This document shows, piece by piece, positions 6,298 to 18,275 of a stretch of DNA of 64,000 nucleotides. Each line of letters begins with the position of its first letter. Position 1 is the first letter of the stretch. The position numbers and the translations under genes are program-made. This DNA is from Dehalococcoidia bacterium (GTDB lineage: Bacteria; Chloroflexota; Dehalococcoidia; UBA2979), in assembly GCA_963692775.1 (NCBI GenBank), contig OY839116.1, positions 3,149,334 to 3,213,333 on the forward strand, written 5' to 3'. A model generated the notes under the pieces. That model did no database searches and had not been told where the DNA came from. It worked only from the letters and a program-made list of their open reading frames with translations.

Positions 6298-9200
6298 GTA
6301 GCGCCCGGCCTTCGGGCCGGGCGAGGATTGAAACTTCGCCTGCCGCTCGATGGCGCAGACCCGAGCGCGCGTAGCGCCCGGCCTTCGGGCCGGGCGAGGA
6401 TTGAAACTCCTCGTCGTCGCGGCGGTAGACGAGGGCGTTGCGCAGTAGCGCCCGGCCTTCGGGCCGGGCGAGGATTGAAACTCGAACGCCACGGGGACAT
6501 GGCCCATCGCCTCGGTGGTAGCGCCCGGCCTTCGGGCCGGGCGAGGATTGAAACGCGCCGAGCATGAGCGGCTCGAGGCGGACCGGCGGGGTAGCGCCCG
6601 GCCTTCGGGCCGGGCGAGGATTGAAACGGCGATGTTGCGAAGGGCGCTCTTATGGGCATCCTCGCGTAGCGCCCGGCCTTCGGGCCGGGCGAGGATTGAA
6701 ACGTCTCGCGCAGCACGTCCGGCTGCGGCGCTCGCTTCCTGTAGCGCCCGGCCTTCGGGCCGGGCGAGGATTGAAACTCGGTCAGGCCGGTGAACACGAG
6801 CGCGAGCACGTCGCCGTAGCGCCCGGCCTTCGGGCCGGGCGAGGATTGAAACCAGAGCGAGACTTGGAGCTTCTTCACGGGACCACCTTCCGGTAGCGCC
6901 CGGCCTTCGGGCCGGGCGAGGATTGAAACTTGTTACGGACGGGCGGGAGGATCACGGATGGCCACGTAGCGCCCGGCCTTCGGGCCGGGCGAGGATTGAA
7001 ACCACTCGATCGGGTCGACTTCGGCACGAGCGTGGAAGTAGCGCCCGGCCTTCGGGCCGGGCGAGGATTGAAACGCGTGCGGCCGCGGCTAGGGCCGGAA
7101 CAGAGTGCCGTAGCGCCCGGCCTTCGGGCCGGGCGAGGATTGAAACGCTCGACCAGGACTCACTGGCGACCGTGCTCGACGCGCGTAGCGCCCGGCCTTC
7201 GGGCCGGGCGAGGATTGAAACCCGATCACGATCGCCAGCCCTCCCTCGATCGCGATGAGTAGCGCCCGGCCTTCGGGCCGGGCGAGGATTGAAACGAGCG
7301 GCGCTACGTCGGCGAGGAGACGTGGGAGGCGATGTAGCGCCCGGCCTTCGGGCCGGGCGAGGATTGAAACATGGTCGTTGCGCTCACCCGTGCGCGCCCT
7401 GCGCCAGGTAGCGCCCGGCCTTCGGGCCGGGCGAGGATTGAAACGCGCCCCAGGACGGGACGCGCGTCTTCAACGGCTCGGGGTAGCGCCCGGCCTTCGG
7501 GCCGGGCGAGGATTGAAACTAGCATGGCCGCCGTGACGCTGATCTGCGTGTGCGAGTAGCGCCCGGCCTTCGGGCCGGGCGAGGATTGAAACGTGAGGCG
7601 GCTGATCGTGTCGGCGTTGCCGGCCGAGAGTAGCGCCCGGCCTTCGGGCCGGGCGAGGATTGAAACCCCGCCATCATCCCGCGCGCGCTTGAAGACCGCC
7701 TCAAGTAGCGCCCGGCCTTCGGGCCGGGCGAGGATTGAAACGAACGCGAGGAGATCCTCGCGTGGTACGCGCCCGGGAGTAGCGCCCGGCCTTCGGGCCG
7801 GGCGAGGATTGAAACAACACCGGGACGATGGCGTCGGCGACGCTGCGCCAGGTAGCGCCCGGCCTTCGGGCCGGGCGAGGATTGAAACCGCTAGTCTGCC
7901 CTGCGGGGCGTCCCGCCGGTCGACATGGTAGCGCCCGGCCTTCGGGCCGGGCGAGGATTGAAACGAGGACGCGCGGCTGCGCGAGGGCCTGCGGGCGCTG
8001 AGTAGCGCCCGGCCTTCGGGCCGGGCGAGGATTGAAACGGCAATACGACTGTGCAGGCCATTGAGGACTTGATCGTAGCGCCCGGCCTTCGGGCCGGGCG
8101 AGGATTGAAACCCTTACAGTGCCGCCGAGGTCACCGCGCGCCTGAGCGCGTAGCGCCCGGCCTTCGGGCCGGGCGAGGATTGAAACAGCCTGGCCGGCGC
8201 GAACGGCCTCGCCACGGACCGCGACGGTAGCGCCCGGCCTTCGGGCCGGGCGAGGATTGAAACGCGCAGCTCGACTACATCGGCGAGGGCAACGCCCACA
8301 GTAGCGCCCGGCCTTCGGGCCGGGCGAGGATTGAAACCCGTACATCTGCCGCGTCGCGAACTCCGACGCCGCGTTGTAGCGCCCGGCCTTCGGGCCGGGC
8401 GAGGATTGAAACGTACCTGCTCGTGCCTCGCAAGAACGGCAAGACGACGTAGCGCCCGGCCTTCGGGCCGGGCGAGGATTGAAACATCCAGCGTCGCCAG
8501 GGGAAGGCCGGGCCGGGGTCGTGGTAGCGCCCGGCCTTCGGGCCGGGCGAGGATTGAAACGGGCTGCTGCAGTTGCACCAGGGCGGCGGGCAGGGCGAGT
8601 AGCGCCCGGCCTTCGGGCCGGGCGAGGATTGAAACATGAAGCTCAGGGGGTGCTGCCTCTGCTCGTGGTCGTGTAGCGCCCGGCCTTCGGGCCGGGCGAG
8701 GATTGAAACCCCCGTGACCGGGGCCCGATCCGGGACGCGGGCGGCGGTAGCGCCCGGCCTTCGGGCCGGGCGAGGATTGAAACCTCGACACGGATCTCGC
8801 ATGAGCGCGAGGCTGCCGACCGTAGCGCCCGGCCTTCGGGCCGGGCGAGGATTGAAACATGCGCGTCACGACGCGCTCCGCGCAGCGGCGCAGCGGGTAG
8901 CGCCCGGCCTTCGGGCCGGGCGAGGATTGAAACGTGCTCGACCGGCTCGAGCGCGGCGAGCCGCTGCCGGAGGTAGCGCCCGGCCTTCGGGCCGGGCGAG
9001 GATTGAAACGCGATCTCGCGGCCGAAGCACTTCGTCCTGGTCACGTAGCGCCCGGCCTTCGGGCCGGGCGAGGATTGAAACGCCCACGCAGGGCGCCGTC
9101 CGCGGATCATCGCACGCGTAGCGCCCGGCCTTCGGGCCGGGCGAGGATTGAAACGACCTGACGGAGCGCGGCTGGCGGATCGTGGCGGCGCTGTAGCGCC

Positions 9201-10493
9201 CGGCCTTCGGGCCGGGCGAGGATTGAAACCGGTTCACGATCTCGCGCAGCAGCTCCGTCTCGGCGGGTAGCGCCCGGCCTTCGGGCCGGGCGAGGATTGA
9301 AACGCGCAGGGCGCCCATCTCGCGCAGCAGCTCCGGCGTGTAGCGCCCGGCCTTCGGGCCGGGCGAGGATTGAAACTCCGGCAACCGCGCGGGCCTCGGC
9401 AACGCGACGATCTCGTAGCGCCCGGCCTTCGGGCCGGGCGAGGATTGAAACTCACGAGAACCTGCGAATCGACATAATCCTACGCCTGTAGCGCCCGGCC
9501 TTCGGGCCGGGCGAGGATTGAAACTCGACGACATGGAGCTTGCCGCCCGCGATCGCGATGTAGCGCCCGGCCTTCGGGCCGGGCGAGGATTGAAACCGCT
9601 ACGGTCAGCGATTGAACCGCTTAGGACGGGAGCCGTAGCGCCCGGCCTTCGGGCCGGGCGAGGATTGAAACTGGCGCATGAGCAAGTTGGCCGCTCAGAT
9701 TATTCGCCGGTAGCGCCCGGCCTTCGGGCCGGGCGAGGATTGAAACCTTCCGCTGCCTGTTGCCCTTGATCCGCCGATCCACCAGGTAGCGCCCGGCCTT
9801 CGGGCCGGGCGAGGATTGAAACGTCAAGCTCATCGCGCCGCCTTACGCGAAGCAGCCGCCGTAGCGCCCGGCCTTCGGGCCGGGCGAGGATTGAAACGGG
9901 TGGCTGCCGGACGCCGGGGCGGTGGCGGCGCGGGAGTAGCGCCCGGCCTTCGGGCCGGGCGAGGATTGAAACGTAGAGCAGGATGGCGACCAGCCCCCCG
10001 ACCGCGAAGTAGCGCCCGGCCTTCGGGCCGGGCGAGGATTGAAACGACAACACCGGCTGGGACGACGCCGCCGCCCTCGCCGGTAGCGCCCGGCCTTCGG
10101 GCCGGGCGAGGATTGAAACCTCTCGCCGGCCGTGCCGAGCGTGGCGGCCGGCGACTAGTAGCGCCCGGCCTTCGGGCCGGGCGAGGATTGAAACCTGCAG
10201 CGCGAGCTACAGGCCGCCCGGAGCGAGGATGTAGCGCCCGGCCTTCGGGCCGGGCGAGGATTGAAACGCGTAGCCCGCCTCGAGGTCGCGGCCCGCGCTC
10301 CGGTAGTAGCGCCCGGCCTTCGGGCCGGGCGAGGATTGAAACCGCGACGGCGACCTCGAGGGCGACGATGCGATCCGCCAGGTAGCGCCCGGCCTTCGGG
10401 CCGGGCGAGGATTGAAACGCCTCGAGCGTGGTCGACGAGGAGCACGCCCGCGCCCGGTAGCGCCCGGCCTTCGGGCCGGGCGAGGATTGAAAC
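6298..10493 (+). CRISPR. CRISPR array: 57 identical 37-nt repeats (GTAGCGCCCGGCCTTCGGGCCGGGCGAGGATTGAAAC) and 56 spacers of 35-40 nt
   Basis: Repeat starts were mapped by eye (6298, 6371, 6445 ... 10382, 10457). The repeat ends in ATTGAAAC, as in type I-C repeats. It contains a GCCCGGCC/GGCCGGGC stem closed by a TTCG loop. Orientation matches the cas operon. Confidence 0.97.
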
Positions 10494-11404
10494 AAGACAT
10501 CGCCGTGCTCGCCCCCACCGGGCGGCGCTGCGACACCGCCAACCCCTACCAGGACGCGCAGCTGCCCGACGGCTCGCGGCTCAACGTCGCGATCCCGCCC
10601 GTCGCCCGCGACCCCGTGATCACGATCCGCAAGTTCGTGCTCTCCGACTTCCCGCTCGAGGCGATGGCCGGCGCCGGCGCCCTCACCAACGAGGCCGCCG
10701 AGTTCCTCGACTCCGCCGTGCGCGCGCAATGCAACATCCTCGTCGCCGGCGGCACCGGCTCCGGCAAGACGACCTTCCTCAACGCCCTCGGCCAGCGCGT
10801 CGACGGGCCGAACGAGCGGATCGTCGTGATCGAGGAGACGGCCGAGCTGCAGCTGCACCTGCAGGTGCTCGACTGCGTCTCCCTGCAGGCGCGGCCGTCC
10901 GGCGCCGACGGCTCGGGCGGCGTCACGATCCGCCAGCTCGTGACCAACGCGCTGCGCATGCGCCCGACCCGCATCATCGTCGGCGAGGTGCGCGGCGGCG
11001 AGGCGCGCGACATGCTCACCGCGATGTCCTCGGGCCACGACGGCTCGATGTGCACCCTGCACGCCTCCTCCGCCCCCAACGGCGTGCTGCGGCTCATGCA
11101 CTACGCGCAGCGCACCGAGGAGCAGGCCTCCGAGGAGTCGCTGCTCTTCGAGATCGCCGCCGCGATCGATTTCGTCGTCTACCTTGAGCAGGACCACGAG
11201 ACGCAGCGCCGCTTCGTCTCCGCGATCTACGAGGTCGTCGGCGTCGAGGGCGGCGGCGACCTCGCCCGCATCACCGGCGCCAACATCTTCGAGCGCGGCC
11301 GCGACGGCGTGCTGCGCCACAGCGGCATCGCCGTGCACCACGCCCAGAAGTTCCGCCGCGCCGGCATCCTCGCCGGCGGACCGAAACCCTGGCTGCCCTC
11401 GTGA
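10494..11404 (+). pseudogene. cpaF: CpaF/TadA-type secretion ATPase lacking its 5' part; homology starts within a few nt of the last CRISPR repeat
   Basis: Motifs present: LPDGSRLNV...ITIRKF, Walker A (GGTGSGKTT) and His-box (GHDGSMCTLHA). No N-terminal domain and no credible start downstream of the array. The stop overlaps the tadB start (GTGA). Confidence 0.75.
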
Positions 11405-12397
11405 GCGCGACGCCGCTGCTGCTGCTCGCGGCGGGAGCCGTCGCGGCCGGGCCCGTGCTGGCCGCCCTCTCCGCAACCCGCGCGCTGGCGCGGCGCGAGC
11501 GCGAGGCCGCCGCGCCGGGCGAGCTCGAGCGGCAGGCGCGCTACCGGCCGCGCCGCGCCGCGCGGGCGCAGTCCCTGACGGCGCGGCTCTTCCCGATCGA
11601 CGACCTCGGACTGCCGCGCGCGCAGGCCGTGCTCGCGATCGCCGGCGGGACCGCCGCCTGGTGGCTGCTGCTCTCGCTCGCGCTCGGACTGCCGATCGCC
11701 GCCGCCGGCTCCGCGCTGCTGCTCGGCTACTTCGCGCCGCGCCAGCTCGCCGGGATCCGCGCCGACCGCCGCCGCGCCGCCACCGAGACGGCGATCGCCA
11801 ACTCGATCGCCGCGCTGCGCGACTTCATCCGCTCCGGCTCCTCGATCAACCGCGCCCTGCAGCAGCTCTCCGAGTCGGGCCCGCTGCTGCTGCGCCCGGA
11901 GTTCCGCCAGCTCTCCTCCGATATCGCCGCGCACGGCTTCGAGACCGCGATCGCGCGCTCCCAGGAACGCCTCGCCCACCCCGCCTGGGACTCGACCGCG
12001 CTCGCCCTCGCCTACTCGCACCGCGCCGGCGGCACCGCGATCAGCCCCGTCATGGACCGCCTCGCCGCCTCCGTCCAGGGCCGTATCGGCGTGCGCTCCG
12101 AGGCGCGCGCGCGCCAGACCGAGTCCGTGCTCACCGGACGCGTGCTCGCCGTCTCCCCGCTCGCCCTGCTCGCCGGCCCTCGCCTTCGCCAACCGCCCCC
12201 TGCTCGCGGAGTTCACGAACCCGCTTGGGCAGATCGTGATCGTCGTGATCCTCGGCATGGTGCTGCTCGGCTACCTCTGGATGATGCGCATCGCCGCCCT
12301 GCCCGCGGACCGCCGCGTGCTGCTCCCGCCGGCCGACGTCACCGAGCGGATCGTGGCCGCCGCGGGGGAGCGGACGCCGCGCGGCCCGGCCCCGTGA
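11401..12397 (+). pseudogene. tadB: TadB-like T2SS-F family membrane protein with a +1 frameshift in a C-run near 12176-12180
   Basis: Frame 1 reads a TadB-like sequence up to ...LAVSPLALLAG. The typical C-terminus LAFANRPLLAEFTNPLGQIVIVVILGMVLLGYLWMMRI continues in frame 2 to the TGA at 12395-12397. Confidence 0.65.
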
Positions 12398-12653
12398 ACA
12401 CCCTGATCGCGGCGGCGCTGCTCAGCGGCCTCGGCTTCGGCCTGCTCGCCCACGCGCTCGTGCTCGCCGCGCGCCGCCCGCATGCCGGCGAGCTGCTCGA
12501 CGCGCTCGGAACCGAGGCCGCCCGGGCGCGCGCGGCCAGGCGCGCGCCTCGCGCCGCCACCGAGCCGCTGATCCGCTCCTCGCCGCTGCTCAACGGGCTC
12601 GTGCAGCCGCCGCTGCTCGCGCTCGGCGAGCTGCTCGCCGCGAGGCCGGTGTC
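12394..12653 (+). pseudogene. tadC: TadC-like gene, N-terminal ~87 codons only, cut off by hairpin element copy a
   Basis: The GTG start overlaps the tadB stop. The hydrophobic N-terminus is VNTLIAAALLSGLGFGLLAHAL. The reading frame runs into the repeat at 12654. Confidence 0.5.
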
Positions 12654-12747
12654 GTGTCGCCGGGGTTCGAACCCCGGCCTTCGTTGAGCGTGCGCCACGG
12701 CGTTCGTCCCGGCGTCGATGTGGGCGATGTGTCGCCGGGATTCGACC
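12654..12747 (+). repeat. Hairpin element copy a (12654-12690), a 38-nt intervening segment, and copy b (12729-12747, first 19 nt only)
   Basis: Copy a is GTGTCGCCGGGGTTCGAACCCCGGCCTTCGTTGAGCG. Copy b is GTGTCGCCGGGATTCGACC and ends abruptly at the IS21-type end. Confidence 0.85.
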
Positions 12748-13047
12748 TGTCGATCGTCAGGGTCTATAGACCACCCGTCGCCACAGTCATTGGACCACCC
12801 CGGGCAGCCGGTAGAGCGGCTTGGTATCAGTGAGCAGTAGGTCTCGTCAATCAGCTCCTTCCTGCGCCTCGAGCAGGGCGCGGTGCGGGGAGAGCCGCTG
12901 ACGGTAGCTCTCGCCCTCGATCACGATCTGGTAGCTGGCGTTGGCGAGCCGGTCGAGGGCGGAGTTGCCGAGGATCGGGTCGTCGAAGAGGCCGAGCCAC
13001 TCCTCAGCGGCACGGTTCGAGGTCACCACGAAGAGTCGATCGGCTGG
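12748..13047 (-). mobile_element. istB: IS21-family remnant: terminal region plus the 3' end of istB (the istB fragment is ~12847-13047)
   Basis: The minus-strand translation ...SNRAAEEWLGLFDDPILGNSALDRLANASYQIVIEGESYRQRL stops at 12847, which is an IstB-like C-terminus by recall. The ~100 bp beyond the stop carries repeated GACCACCC motifs, as in multi-repeat IS21 ends. Upstream istB and istA are absent. Confidence 0.6.
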
Positions 13048-13382
13048 GTGTCGCCGGGGGTAGACCACCGGCCTTCGTTGAGCGTGCCGCGGGCCGTGCA
13101 CCGCGTCGCACAGGCGTGGATGTGTCGCCGGGGGTAGACCCCCCGGCCTTCGTTGAGCGTGCCGCGGGCCGTGCACCGCGTCGCACAGGCGTGGATGTGT
13201 CGCCGGGGGTAGACCCCCCGGCCTTCGTTGAGCGTGCCGCGGGCCGTGCACCGCGTCGCACAGGCGTGGATGTGTCGCCGGGGGTAGACCCCCGGCCTTC
13301 GTTGAGCGCATCGTAGATGAAGGTGGGTGAAGGAGAGATGAATGAGTGTCGCCGGGGGCAGCCTCCCGGCCTTTGTTGAGCG
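13048..13382 (+). repeat. Five hairpin elements (copies c-g) at 74-75-bp periodicity: 37-38-nt elements separated by 37-nt segments
   Basis: Copies start at 13048, 13122, 13197, 13272 and 13346. Three intervening segments are identical (TGCCGCGGGCCGTGCACCGCGTCGCACAGGCGTGGAT). The fourth (13309-13345) is unrelated and AT-richer. Confidence 0.9.
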
Positions 13383-13394
13383 GCTGTAGGGGCC

Positions 13395-15173
13395 ATGGGC
13401 ACAGATCAACTGCTCGTCGTGTTCGTACTCGCTCTCACGCTCGCGGGCTTCGCCTGGGGGCGCTGGCGCTACGACGCGGTGGCGCTGCTCGCGCTACTCA
13501 CGCTCGTGCTGGGCGGCGTCGTGCCGGGCGAGCGAGCCTTCGCCGGCTTCGGCCACCCCGCCGTCGTCACGGTCGCCGCGGTGCTCGTCGTCAGCCGCGG
13601 CCTGCAGAACTCAGGCGCCGTCGACACGGTGGCCCGTGTGCTCACCCTCGCAGGCGGTTCGCTCACCCGCCAGATCGCGGCCACCTCCGGGCTGGCGGCG
13701 GCGCTCTCGGCGTTCATCAACAACGTCGGCGCGCTGGCCGTCCTCATGCCGACGACGCTGCGCCTCGCCCGCCAGGCGGGCAACCGGCCGTCCGCCGTGC
13801 TCATGCCGCTTGCCTTCGCCTCGCTGCTCGGCGGCCTCGTCACGCTCGTCGGCACCCCGCCCAACATCGTGATCGCCTCCTTCCGGGCGGAGACATCCGG
13901 GGAGCCGTTCGCGATGTTCGACTTCGCGCCGGTTGGCCTCGGCGTCGCGTTCGCGGGTCTCGCCTTTGTCTCGCTGGTCGGCTGGCGGTTGATCCCGCGG
14001 CGCGAGGAGGCGGTGAGCGAGCAGCTCTTCGAGATCGACGACTACCTCTTCGAGCTCCGGGCGCCGCGCGGCTCCCCGGCGATCGGGCGGACCATCGCCG
14101 AGCTCGGCTCGGAGACGGACGCCGAGTTCATCGTGCTCGCGCTCGTGCGCGGCGAACGGCGGATCGACATCCCCTGGAGTTTCGAGACGTTGCGCGCGGG
14201 AGACGTCCTGGCCGTCGAGGCGAGCAGCGAGGCGCTCGACGCGCTCGTCGCCGCGGCCGGGCTGGAAATTGCGGGCGGAAGCGGCGGCGCGGCGGCGGGG
14301 CCGGGCGGCGGCGACATCGTGCTCGCCGAGGCGGTGATCATGGACGGCTCGCAGCTGCAGGGGCGGACGGTCGTGCAGGCCGATCTGCGGCAGCGCCACC
14401 ACGTCAACGTGCTGGCGATTTCGCGCGGCGACAGGCAACGCTTCACCGCCCGCATGCAGGATCTGGCGCTCGAGGCAGGGGACGTGCTGCTCCTCCAGGC
14501 GGATCGCCGCGAGTTGCCCTCCACGCTCGAAACGCTACACTGCCTGCCGCTGGCCGAGCGCGAGCTCGCCGCCGGGCGCCGCGAGCGCCGCGCGCTGCTC
14601 GCGACCTCGATCTTCGGCGGTGCCCTCGTGCTGGCGGCCGTGCTGCGGCTGCTGCCGATCCAGGCCGCGCTGGCGCTCGCCGCCGCGGTGATGGGGCTGA
14701 TCGGGCTGGTCTCGCCCAAGGAGGTCTACGAGTCGATCGACTGGCGGGTGATCGTGCTGCTGGGCGCGATGATCCCGGTCGGCGGGGCGCTGGAGGAGAC
14801 GGGGCTCGCGGCCGAGACGGCGGCGGCGCTCGTCGCGGTCAGCGGCGGCTGGCCGCTGTGGACGAACGTCGCCGTGGTGCTCGTGACCTCGATGTTCCTG
14901 TCGGACCTCGTCAACAACACGGCGGCGGCGGTGCTCATGGCGCCGATCGCGCTCGGCGTCGCGGGCGGACTCTCCGCGCCGGCGGATCCGTTTCTCATGG
15001 CCGTCGCGGTGGGAGCCTCGGCGGCGTTCCTGACTCCGATCGGCCACCAGTCGAACCTGCTGGTGATGGGGCCGGGCGGCTATCGCTTCGGCGACTACTG
15101 GCGGCTGGGGCTGCCACTCGAGGCCGTGATCACGGCCGTCGCCGTGCCGCTGATCGTGCTGGTCTGGGCGTAA
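13395..15173 (+). CDS. SLC13/DASS-family permease with two central TrkA-C (RCK_C) domains
   Basis: 592-aa intact ORF with polytopic hydrophobic N- and C-terminal halves. The central soluble segments have an RCK_C-like pattern (LFELRAPRGSPAIGRTIAEL..., VIMDGSQLQGRTVVQADL...). Confidence 0.8.
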   Translation: MGTDQLLVVFVLALTLAGFAWGRWRYDAVALLALLTLVLGGVVPGERAFAGFGHPAVVTVAAVLVVSRGLQNSGAVDTVARVLTLAGGSLTRQIAATSGLAAALSAFINNVGALAVLMPTTLRLARQAGNRPSAVLMPLAFASLLGGLVTLVGTPPNIVIASFRAETSGEPFAMFDFAPVGLGVAFAGLAFVSLVGWRLIPRREEAVSEQLFEIDDYLFELRAPRGSPAIGRTIAELGSETDAEFIVLALVRGERRIDIPWSFETLRAGDVLAVEASSEALDALVAAAGLEIAGGSGGAAAGPGGGDIVLAEAVIMDGSQLQGRTVVQADLRQRHHVNVLAISRGDRQRFTARMQDLALEAGDVLLLQADRRELPSTLETLHCLPLAERELAAGRRERRALLATSIFGGALVLAAVLRLLPIQAALALAAAVMGLIGLVSPKEVYESIDWRVIVLLGAMIPVGGALEETGLAAETAAALVAVSGGWPLWTNVAVVLVTSMFLSDLVNNTAAAVLMAPIALGVAGGLSAPADPFLMAVAVGASAAFLTPIGHQSNLLVMGPGGYRFGDYWRLGLPLEAVITAVAVPLIVLVWA

Positions 15174-15195: not shown

Positions 15196-15546
15196 AGACC
15201 GTGACTTCCGCGCGGCTCAGCTCCCGCCGCCCGCTCGCAGGCGCACGCGATCCGCGCTGCGGCCTCCTCGAGGTCTTCGGCGCTCGCCGTCGACCAGGCG
15301 AGGTGGCTGCAGCCACCGCCGGGGTCGCCGCCGCGCTCGTCGTGGTCCGGGAAGAAGGCGCGGCCGCCCGGGAAGACGACGCCCTCGACGAGCGACTCGC
15401 GCTGCGCGGTGTCGGCGCTCAGGCCGCCGCGCAGCCGCACCCAGAGGAAGAATTCGCATCGAGGGCCGCGGAAGTCGGCATACGGCTTGGCGTACTCGCG
15501 CAGCCCGCGCTGCAGGGGCTTCGGCCTTGCGCGCGTAGAGCGCCGG
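15196..15546 (-). pseudogene. C-terminal fragment of a class I/II PLP-dependent aminotransferase
   Basis: The minus-strand translation ...FFLWVRLRGGLSADTAQRESLVEGVVFPGGRAFF... matches the conserved aminotransferase C-terminal pattern. No N-terminal part is present. It abuts the transposase fragment at ~15547. Confidence 0.5.
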
Positions 15547-16260
15547 CATGCTGCTCCAGGTCGACGGCAGCCATCACGCCTGGCTCGAGCAGCGCGGCCC
15601 GCGCTTCTGCCTCCTGCTCGGCGTCGACGACGCCACCGGCGCCGTCGTGCACGCTCTCTTCCGTCCCGCCGAGGACGCGCGCGGCTAATTCCTGCTGATG
15701 GAGGGGTGCTGCGCCGCGCGGGCGTCCCGCTCGCCCTGTAGAGCGATCGCCACGCCGTCTTCCGGGCCTCCGCCCAGCAGCGCGCGGGACGCGGAGGCTC
15801 CACCCAGTTCGCCCGCGCGCTGGCGGAGCTGGGGGTCCGCCTGATCCTCGCCGCTCCCCGCAGGCCAAGGGCCGCGTGGAGCGCGTCGCCGGCACCCTCC
15901 AGGACCGCCTCGTGACCGAGCTGCGACTCGCCCGGGCGACCACCCTCTCCGAGGCGCAAGCCGTGCTTGATCGCTTCAACGCCCGCTTCGCCGTCGCCGC
16001 CCGCGAGCCCGAGTCAGCCTGGCGGCCGCTCGACCCGGCGCTCGACCTCGGCGCCGTCCTCGCCTTCCGCCACCCGCGCAGCGTCGCCCGTGACAACACC
16101 GTCAAGTACCGCTGACGCACGTTGCAGCTGCTGCCCTCCCCGGAGCGGACCAGCTACGCCGGGGTACAGGTCGAGGTGACCGAACGCCCCGGCGGGGAAC
16201 TCGCGGTGCGTCACCTGGGCGAGACCATCCCCAGCCAGCTCGCCCCGCCCCGAGCCGGTG
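15547..16260 (+). pseudogene. ISNCY-like (integrase-core) transposase, C-terminal two-thirds, with in-frame stops and frameshifts (fragment A)
   Basis: The translation reads MLLQVDGSHHAWLEQRGPRFCLLLGVDDATG... then, across frame breaks, ...RVAGTLQDRLVTELRLA...RDNTVKYR, a stop, then ...LQLLPSPERTSYAGVQVEVTERPGGELAV. Family assignment is by recall. Confidence 0.55.
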
Positions 16261-16524: not shown

Positions 16525-17004
16525 CCCGCGTGACGCTACGTACTCGACAGAGTGGTGGCCGGAGATTTGCAAGCCTCGCAAGCCGCCGAGCTCCTGGGCA
16601 TCAGCGAGCGACACGCCTGGCGGCTCCTCGCCGCCTACCGCGCGCGCGGAGCGGCGGCGCTTGCGCACGGCAACTGCGGGCGCCGTCCCCACAACGCCAC
16701 CGCAGCCGACGTCGCCTCGGCCTGGTGCGCTTCGCCAGCTCGCGTTACCCGGGCGCGAATCACACGCACCTCGCCCGAGCTGCTCTGGGAGCACGAGGGC
16801 CTGGACCTGAGCTGGACGGTCCGCCGGATCCTGACGCGGGCCGGCATCGCGAGTCCCCGACGCCGCCGCCCGCCCGAGCACCGCGTCCGGCGTGAGCGGA
16901 TGCCGCGCGAGGGCATGCTGGTCCAGGTCGACAGCAGCCACCACGCCTGGCTCGATCAGCGAGGCCCGCGCTTCGCCCTCCTGCTCGCCGTCGACGATGC
17001 GCGG
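16525..17004 (+). pseudogene. ISNCY-like transposase, N-terminal third only (fragment B)
   Basis: HTH region LDRVVAGDLQASQAAELLGISERHAWRLLAAYRARGAAALAHGN, running on to ...[29 protein letters not shown]. It ends at the junction with the leuA fragment. Confidence 0.55.
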
Positions 17005-17007
17005 CCG

Positions 17008-17790
<783 letters not shown>

Positions 17791-17792
17791 AC

Positions 17793-17829
17793 GTGTCGCC
17801 GGGATTCGACCCCCGGCCTTTGTTGAGCG
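17793..17829 (+). repeat. Hairpin element copy h (GTGTCGCCGGGATTCGACCCCCGGCCTTTGTTGAGCG)
   Basis: It has the same conserved flanks as copies a-g, and its first 19 nt are identical to the truncated copy b. It sits exactly at the 5' breakpoint of the leuA fragment. Confidence 0.85.
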
Positions 17830-18033
17830 TCGCGCCATCGTGACGGTAACAAACGGAATCGATTAGTGTCGCAGGGATGATGACCGGAGACCCTTGTCGA
17901 CCGCCTCGATCGCCTGCCCTGAGCCTCCCGCAGGGGGCGGCCGGGGCGAAGATGGCCACAAGATGGCCACAACTGATCACCCTGTTGAGTACAATGCGCC
18001 AGGGAACGATCCGCGAGAACCCGCTGGCGACGT

Positions 18034-18121
<88 letters not shown>

Positions 18122-18200
18122 TGCCGTGGTCCGTCCAGCATCGCGCGAGGACGGCGACGCGACAAGCGCGGCGACGAGAGGTACGCGCGGGGGGTGAGGG

Positions 18201-18275
18201 TGGAGCGGAAGACGGGGGTCGAACCCGCGACCTCCTCCTTGGCAAGGAGGCGCTCTACCACTGAGCTACTTCCGC
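18201..18275 (-). tRNA. tRNA-Gly (anticodon GCC), CCA encoded
   Basis: The reverse complement is GCGGAAGTAGCTCAGTGGTAGAGCGCCTCCTTGCCAAGGAGGAGGTCGCGGGTTCGACCCCCGTCTTCCGCTCCA. Confidence 0.92.

Follow-up and report, generated by a model that had tools for sequence, protein, structure and literature searches.

A probable remnant of a type I-G CRISPR array downstream of a type I-C system in a Dehalococcoidia bacterium

Repeats and spacers of the second array

A 64-kb stretch of contig OY839116.1 from a Dehalococcoidia bacterium (referred to here as the window) was found to carry, downstream of a type I-C CRISPR array, a second set of repeats. The upstream locus is a standard I-C system, with genes for Cas5c, Cas8c, Cas7c, Cas4, Cas1c and Cas2 followed by 57 identical repeats at 6298-10493. 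The second set comprises seven full copies of 37-38 nucleotides (nt), a 19-nt stub (copy b) and a degenerate end copy (copy i). Every copy was located on the + strand, with the full copies starting GTGTCGCCGGG and ending CCGGCCTT(C/T)GTTGAGCG, as determined with pattern searches and repeat finders applied to the window. The 3' flank motif occurred seven times, compared to 0.07 occurrences expected in shuffled sequence. The copies, the spacers and the DNA interrupting them are arranged as follows:

12654..12690, + strand: repeat a, complete at 37 nt, loop TTCGAA; nhmmer E = 2e-12; 8-bp hairpin of -16.9 kcal/mol
12691..12728, + strand: spacer S1, 38 nt, 71% GC; no match in phage records
12729..12747, + strand: repeat b, cut short by an insertion after its first 19 nt; partial nhmmer match to model positions 1-17
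12748..13047, - strand: fragment of an IS21-family insertion sequence (IS), consisting of the element end and the C-terminal 63 aa of IstB (12850-13038); PF01695 (IstB_IS21), profile positions 188-233 of 238
13048..13084, + strand: repeat c, 37 nt, one stem mismatch (CCACC)
13085..13121, + strand: spacer S2, copy 1 of 3, 37 nt, 76% GC; three identical copies
13122..13159, + strand: repeat d, 38 nt, one extra C
13160..13196, + strand: spacer S2, copy 2 of 3, identical to copies 1 and 3
13197..13234, + strand: repeat e, 38 nt, same sequence as d
13235..13271, + strand: spacer S2, copy 3 of 3, identical to copies 1 and 2
13272..13308, + strand: repeat f, 37 nt
13309..13345, + strand: spacer S3, 37 nt, 46% GC; exact match absent from viral contigs (IMG/VR)
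13346..13382, + strand: repeat g, 37 nt, G-U wobble in the stem, C29T variant, terminator-like score
13383..17792: non-array DNA between g and h, 4.4 kb
17793..17829, + strand: repeat h, 37 nt; loop as in stub b, C29T as in g
17830..17865, + strand: spacer S4, 36 nt, 50% GC; exact match absent from viral contigs (IMG/VR)
17866..17903, + strand: repeat i, degenerate terminal repeat, GTGTCGCAGGGAT...CCTTGTCGACCG, starting 73 nt after h; trailer end of the array

An original prediction, made before this analysis, had described seven elements (a to g) and an eighth at 17793. Copies a and c to h were borne out as full copies with the invariant flanks and common strand it had reported, but b proved to be a partial copy and the ninth copy, i, had been missed. 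Its period of 74-75 nt was found to hold as the start-to-start distance between contiguous copies, though not between b and c, which are spaced 319 nt apart because the end of the IS21-family element cuts copy b. The segments c-d, d-e and e-f were identical, as had been noted, and Tandem Repeats Finder resolved the c-f stretch into 3.5 copies with a period of 75 and 98% matches. Segment 12691-12728 had been taken for a diverged version of this triplicated segment; this was not supported, as the p value of its alignment score (~0.04) was the same as that of an unrelated spacer pair.

Comparison of the window copies to a profile of the wider repeat family described below gave nhmmer E-values of 2e-12 to 2e-7. 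Copy i, of which the 5' half is kept and the 3' half has diverged, was not picked up by this profile search at E<=10. In copies g and h, the C29T change alters the tail to CUUUGUUG, and both were identified as the sole intrinsic-terminator-like sites in their regions (13351-13380 and 17798-17827). The same change was observed as the dominant repeat variant in some intact arrays of the family (e.g. L014 and L097).

Repeat family and association with type I-G cas genes

Reference genomes were scanned, with one genome per species, for the pattern GTGTCGCCGGN{8,18}CCGGCCTTYGTTGAG, resulting in at least 119 loci (L001-L119) that share a 37-nt repeat consensus, GTGTCGCCGGGGTTCACGCCCCGGCCTTCGTTGAGCG. 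Most of the loci listed were canonical arrays, in which as many as 108 repeats were counted per 8 kb at a period of 72-75 nt, and their spacers measured 34-40 nt with a mode of 36. Each locus was oriented by its repeat and the flanking open reading frames (ORFs) were clustered. Among the listed loci with flanking sequence, conserved ORFs were found upstream of the arrays, invariably on the same strand, and most arrays with retrieved flanks were situated directly downstream of type I-G cas genes on that strand, at the following distances:

Cas2: median of ~265 nt from the array, 15 of the listed loci
Cas1: median of ~490 nt from the array, 37 of the listed loci
Cas4: median of ~1.5 kb from the array, 28 of the listed loci
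300-aa protein (Cas3-extension): median of ~2.1 kb from the array, 29 of the listed loci
Cas3g: median of ~3 kb from the array, 22 of the listed loci
Csb2: median of ~5.8 kb from the array, 10 of the listed loci

Cluster representatives were named by NCBIfam as type I-G Csb2 (TIGR02165, 142 bits against a cutoff of 45), type I-G Cas3g (TIGR02621, 594 bits against a cutoff of 400), Cas4, Cas1 and Cas2, with the representative of the 300-aa cluster matching the I-G Cas3-extension family at 58.5 bits, slightly under the cutoff of 65. Therefore, when read on the + strand, the repeat was identified as a CRISPR repeat of type I-G (formerly I-U). No Rfam family covers the window repeat, the CRISPR-DR families all being below threshold even at E<=10. 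A minus-strand type V assignment, which had been considered because the reverse complement resembles some type V repeats, was dropped, as the cas genes found elsewhere are I-G and lie on the + strand of the repeat.

The suggestion that the copies represent an uncharacterised hairpin element was rejected. Also considered was a reading of them as a dispersed palindrome that merely resembles a CRISPR repeat, similar to repetitive extragenic palindromic (REP) sequences, bacterial interspersed mosaic elements (BIMEs) or miniature inverted-repeat transposable elements (MITEs). Short GC-rich hairpins at the junctions of gene fragments, with one copy 4.4 kb from the rest, would fit such an element. 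However, the copies are confined to a single locus in the 64-kb window, all on one strand and at the 74-75-nt spacing of a CRISPR array, and dozens of genomes were found to hold canonical arrays of the identical repeat next to cas genes. On these grounds the REP/MITE reading was excluded, its probability being considered negligible.

The relationship to the neighbouring I-C array was also investigated. Rfam family CRISPR-DR9 (I-C) matched all 57 I-C repeats and none of the sequence at 12654-13382 or at 17793. The predicted identity of the window element to the I-C repeat, at 18 of 37 positions, was confirmed, and it was 19 of 37 for the family consensus (shuffle p = 0.003); in addition, the top score of the I-G Cas1 was to the I-C Cas1 model. 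This likeness is consistent with a general relatedness of the repeats and adaptation modules of the two types. Both arrays are on the same strand with a 37-nt repeat and similar spacer length, and both repeats consist of a short 5' flank, a hairpin in the centre whose loop is the size of a tetraloop, and a 3' tail of 11-12 nt. In contrast, the 3' tag is GUUGAGCG in the window family and AUUGAAAC in I-C, and the 57 identical I-C repeats directly follow cas2, while the window array is of another sequence family. An extension of the I-C array was rejected, as the window repeats fall outside CRISPR-DR9 and their family sits beside I-G operons elsewhere; the earlier suggestions that the copies are a trailer of the I-C array, or that they derive from or are processed by the I-C machinery, were not supported on the same grounds. 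Within the I-C array, adjacent spacers 40 and 41 were observed to share a 19-nt stretch, ATCTCGCGCAGCAGCTCCG (9239-9257 and 9317-9335), which suggests that they may stem from two acquisitions from overlapping or related protospacers.

A structure alignment of 45 array-specific repeat variants and five window copies revealed an 8-bp stem (columns 6-13 with 18-25) in which 97% of cells were paired, compared to at most 61% when the partners were slid. Three of the pairs are unconstrained by the scan pattern, and in these both A-U compensatory changes and G-U wobbles were observed. As the G of the wobbles is in the 5' arm and the U in the 3' arm, they pair only as + strand RNA. The G-T pair pointed out earlier in copy g is a real G-U wobble. 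The claim of compensatory stem changes was upheld in part, since changes within the window are mostly shifts in the length of the G-run and C-run, with convincing covariation found only across the wider family. RNA folding returned the same hairpin for the consensus and copies a, d, f and g, with weaker versions in c and h. Two further origins for the element were tried and rejected. For a tRNA or attachment site (the TTCGAA loop being like that of a tRNA T-arm), ARAGORN and Rfam identified tRNAs only at 18034-18275, and few arrays of the family in other genomes were near tRNA genes. For an integron attC site, a reading of the sequence showed that GTTGAGC fits the GTTRRRY core site, but that the inverse core site is absent and the element is too short.

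The stem is followed on its 3' side by a 12-nt tail, CUUCGUUGAGCG. In the sole biochemically characterised I-G system, that of Thioalkalivibrio, Csb2 cuts 4 nt 3' of a 7-bp stem, leaving an 8-nt 5' handle and a mature CRISPR RNA (crRNA) of 72 nt (PMC9638904). A tail of 4 + 8 nt and a unit of ~72-75 nt fit this published processing (PMC9638904). An intact array of the family is transcribed from a leader ending ATTAGCA, with each 37-nt repeat folding into the 8-bp hairpin and Csb2 (a Cas5-Cas6 fusion) predicted to cut 4 nt 3' of the stem, which would give a crRNA consisting of the 8-nt 5' handle GUUGAGCG, a spacer of ~36 nt and a 3' hairpin. The I-G arrays of Thioalkalivibrio sulfidiphilus HL-EbGr7 (PMC9638904) resemble the window array in their palindromic repeats of 36-37 nt, spacers of ~36 nt, hairpin of 7-8 bp and 12-nt 3' tail (4 nt and then the 8 nt of the handle). 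At the family loci in metagenome-assembled genomes (MAGs), Cas4 and Cas1 are encoded by separate ORFs, unlike the Cas4-Cas1 fusion of some I-G systems.

Leaders of intact family arrays (e.g. L004, L012, L015, L024 and L032) end in (G/A)ATTAGCA or ATTAGGG, with no gap before repeat 1, as was the case for most of the 40 leaders compared, and this motif is probably the leader-anchoring site for spacer integration. At the opposite end, the last repeats of intact arrays were found to be degenerate at their 3' end, as in L011 (...CCTTCGTCGACCG), L019, L027 and L050, and copy i of the window is alike.

Solitary repeats and minimal arrays of the family were commonly encountered elsewhere (L009, L016, L022, L026, L040, L071, L072, L083, L092, L096, L113 and others), typically in the form of leader, repeat, spacer and truncated repeat, or of two to three heterogeneous repeats. 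Relics like that of the window are therefore not unusual. With its flanks fixed by the scan pattern, the family repeat was observed among the loci listed in MAGs of nine phyla (given as Acidobacteriota, Chloroflexota, Gemmatimonadota, Latescibacterota, Spirochaetota, Pseudomonadota, Rhodothermales, Cyanobacteriota and Actinomycetota), some of the carriers being named sponge symbionts (e.g. Ca. Synechococcus spongiarum and Ca. Palauibacter). Among the taxa sampled, array-adjacent Cas1 proteins shared 56-84% identity (61-84% apart from a single pair at 56%). This identity, together with the spread over nine phyla, suggests extensive transfer of one CRISPR-Cas lineage between phyla.

Decay of the window array

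The leader motif ATTAGCA/ATTAGGG was absent before repeat a, where the upstream sequence reads ...GAGGCCGGTGTC and a T2SSF-like ORF (11401-12687) runs into the repeat, and no promoter-like site was found for the array. Searching the 64-kb window with I-G proteins (tblastn) returned no Csb2, Cas3g or Cas3-extension, the only matches being to Cas4, Cas1 and Cas2 of the I-C system at 41-51% identity. As the cognate I-G cas genes are absent from the window, the locus was assigned to the I-G repeat family as an orphan array, and not as a complete I-G system.

The repeats themselves are heterogeneous, with five variants in eight window copies against a median of one in 70 intact arrays, in which the dominant variant accounted for all copies at the median. 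The variants are mosaic, in that b and h share a loop and C29T is common to g and h. There are two interruptions in the array. The end of the IS21-family element cuts repeat b at position 19, with ~300 bp of the element left between b and c; homologues of its IstB were found on plasmids, and are too distant to fix the breakpoint closer than ~18 nt. At four junctions (the left edges of a, c and h and the right edge of g), non-array DNA comes near a repeat, and the available homologues bounded the leftover spacer there only loosely, at ~12-24 nt. Junctions exactly at the edges would point to capture mediated by a spacer or an integrase. A 10-nt match between the repeat and the upstream region of a relative's permease gene was at noise level.

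Three of the six window spacers are one sequence (S2), and the spacers measure 36-38 nt against the family mode of 36. True family arrays were also found to contain adjacent duplicate spacers (13 pairs in 2442 spacers among the loci listed); tandem duplication of a unit is recognised array behaviour, and the window is exceptional in that half of its spacers are one sequence. A spacer search against phage sequences, which had been put forward as a check, produced as its best match a single hit of 26 nt (E = 0.7) that is not meaningful, and no self-targeting by the spacers was found in the window. At 46-50% GC in a window of 72% GC, S3 and S4 are suggestive of a foreign origin.

These features led us to conclude, with high confidence, that the locus is a fragmented remnant of a type I-G array, with its own leader and cas genes absent from the window, and that it is a genomic relic that has presumably lost its function. 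Among the readings offered in the original prediction was a second CRISPR array that had decayed after its system was lost, and this is the one borne out by the I-G family membership and the decay features. The identical spacers, variable repeats and distant eighth copy are signs of decay and not of a new class of element. Orphan or degenerate arrays are a general phenomenon following the loss of cas genes, and mutated repeats, IS insertion and a missing leader are found in them as in the window. Unlike generic orphan arrays, that of the window has an intact but unrelated I-C system at a distance of 2.2 kb and is in two pieces 4.4 kb apart. It also differs from the Thioalkalivibrio I-G arrays in having no leader and no I-G cas genes in 64 kb, and in being heterogeneous and interrupted with a triplicated spacer.

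A number of points weigh against this conclusion. The scan pattern itself accounts for part of the constancy of the repeat flanks between genomes, and none of the four distinct spacers matched phage or viral sequences (phage records for the spacers; exact matches in IMG/VR for S3 and S4). Seven of the nine copies retain intact flanks and a stable hairpin, so their RNA could be processed if Csb2 were encoded elsewhere, and the window represents 64 kb of a contig of ~3.2 Mb. The last two points also favour a functional orphan array, the transcription of which would come from read-through of the tad genes upstream, and which would serve in trans an I-G system encoded at another place in the genome. 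Such an array would account for the retention of the full hairpin and putative 8-nt handle in most copies, for spacers of a length that fits the family, and for the GC content of S3 and S4, as would be expected of foreign-derived spacers. Nevertheless, with neither leader motif nor promoter-like site, with an IS fragment and 4.4 kb of genes inside the array, with half of the spacers identical and repeat heterogeneity far above that of active arrays, and with I-G effector genes absent from the 64 kb, a functional array was deemed unlikely.

Neighbouring genes and history of the locus

The genes and gene fragments around the remnant of the I-G array are as follows:

10541-11404: type II/IV secretion ATPase gene, N-terminal part missing (T2SSE profile from position 71); within ~50 nt of the end of the I-C array
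13395-15173, + strand: CitMHS/TrkA-C permease gene, intact
15540-15633 and 16907-17000: 94-nt direct repeats, 88-90% identical, inside transposase-like ORFs with GMLVQVD(G/S)SHHAWL
16552-17016: ORF holding the second 94-nt repeat, with a winged helix-turn-helix N-terminus
17041-17790, - strand: HMGL-like gene fragment (2-isopropylmalate synthase family fold), without ~55 N-terminal profile positions
18034-18275, - strand: tRNA-Leu(CAA) and tRNA-Gly(GCC), ~130 nt past terminal repeat i

The region 10494-12687 was observed to be a truncated tad/cpa-like pilus locus (the ATPase, then the T2SSF-like ORF) wedged between the two CRISPR arrays. In the 4.4-kb interruption, the permease aligns with its homologues from residue 1, and relatives have an intergenic region of 95-130 nt upstream of it; as the permease begins 12 nt after repeat g, it is without its native upstream region. 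The two ORFs with the 94-nt repeats appear to be what is left of two copies of a single IS. The HMGL-like fragment ends ~10-25 nt from repeat h, with its C-terminal part out of frame. The gene fragments at 10.5-18 kb could represent a decayed island beside a tRNA integration site. Only a few family arrays elsewhere were observed near tRNA genes.

No phage, plasmid or toxin genes were found adjoining the array, a result that bears on whether the repeats are mimics carried by a mobile element, either as an RNA anti-CRISPR or decoy of the solitary-repeat-unit type or as a CreTA-like mini-array, whose hairpins would sequester I-G Cas proteins. A unit with a fixed 'spacer' three times in tandem, the IS fragments around the locus, and the solitary repeats and mini-arrays of the family in other genomes could each be explained in this manner. 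However, the neighbouring system is I-C, which the window repeat does not mimic, tandem duplicates are also present in ordinary arrays, and the majority of the solitary copies in other genomes resemble collapsed arrays, having a leader and a degenerate terminal repeat. A mimic was considered speculative and highly improbable. A slim chance was given to the relic not being inert, in which case its hairpins could act as a decoy or competitor by binding the Csb2 of an I-G system encoded elsewhere, or its repeats could be recombination or integration sites that captured the 4.4-kb segment, the permease then depending on transcription through the array.

Comparison to relatives, which had been proposed as a check on synteny, returned no genome with the same locus. 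Permease relatives 77-82% identical to that of the window (protein search), one of them from a Chloroflexi bacterium MAG, are located in ordinary metabolic neighbourhoods from which the array is absent, while those on metagenome contigs are at most 56% identical and have no repeats nearby. An exact search of metagenome contigs for the repeat with the GGTAGACC loop found nothing, and exact look-ups of window proteins gave no return. The solitary repeat of L092, a Dehalococcoidia contig, combines the loop of copy a with the C29T of g and h. Comparison using tblastx of the window to the loci with the most similar solitary repeats (L092, L026, L005 and L111) identified no shared context. A further reservation regarding the relic follows from this, as the order and age of its rearrangements are only inferred for want of a close relative in which the locus was found.

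The remnant would have arisen through loss of the cas operon and leader from the vicinity, followed by insertion of the IS21-family element into repeat b and an internal deletion after it. Tandem triplication of one repeat-spacer unit, along with point changes and recombination among the repeats, would account for the present repeats and spacers, and g and h would have been separated by an insertion or rearrangement that brought in 4.4 kb of unrelated DNA. The piece at the end of the array, h-S4-i, still keeps the usual degenerate last repeat of the family.

The locus should accordingly be annotated as a degenerate orphan type I-G array, apart from the I-C system, and not as a new RNA or DNA element. 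Its presence indicates that a second CRISPR system was once carried by the lineage, or that a fragment of such a system was received, and it offers an example of how an array erodes when an IS inserts, a unit is duplicated, the repeats drift and other DNA interrupts it. The spread of the I-G repeat family across phyla, though a side observation of this study, is more notable than the window array itself.

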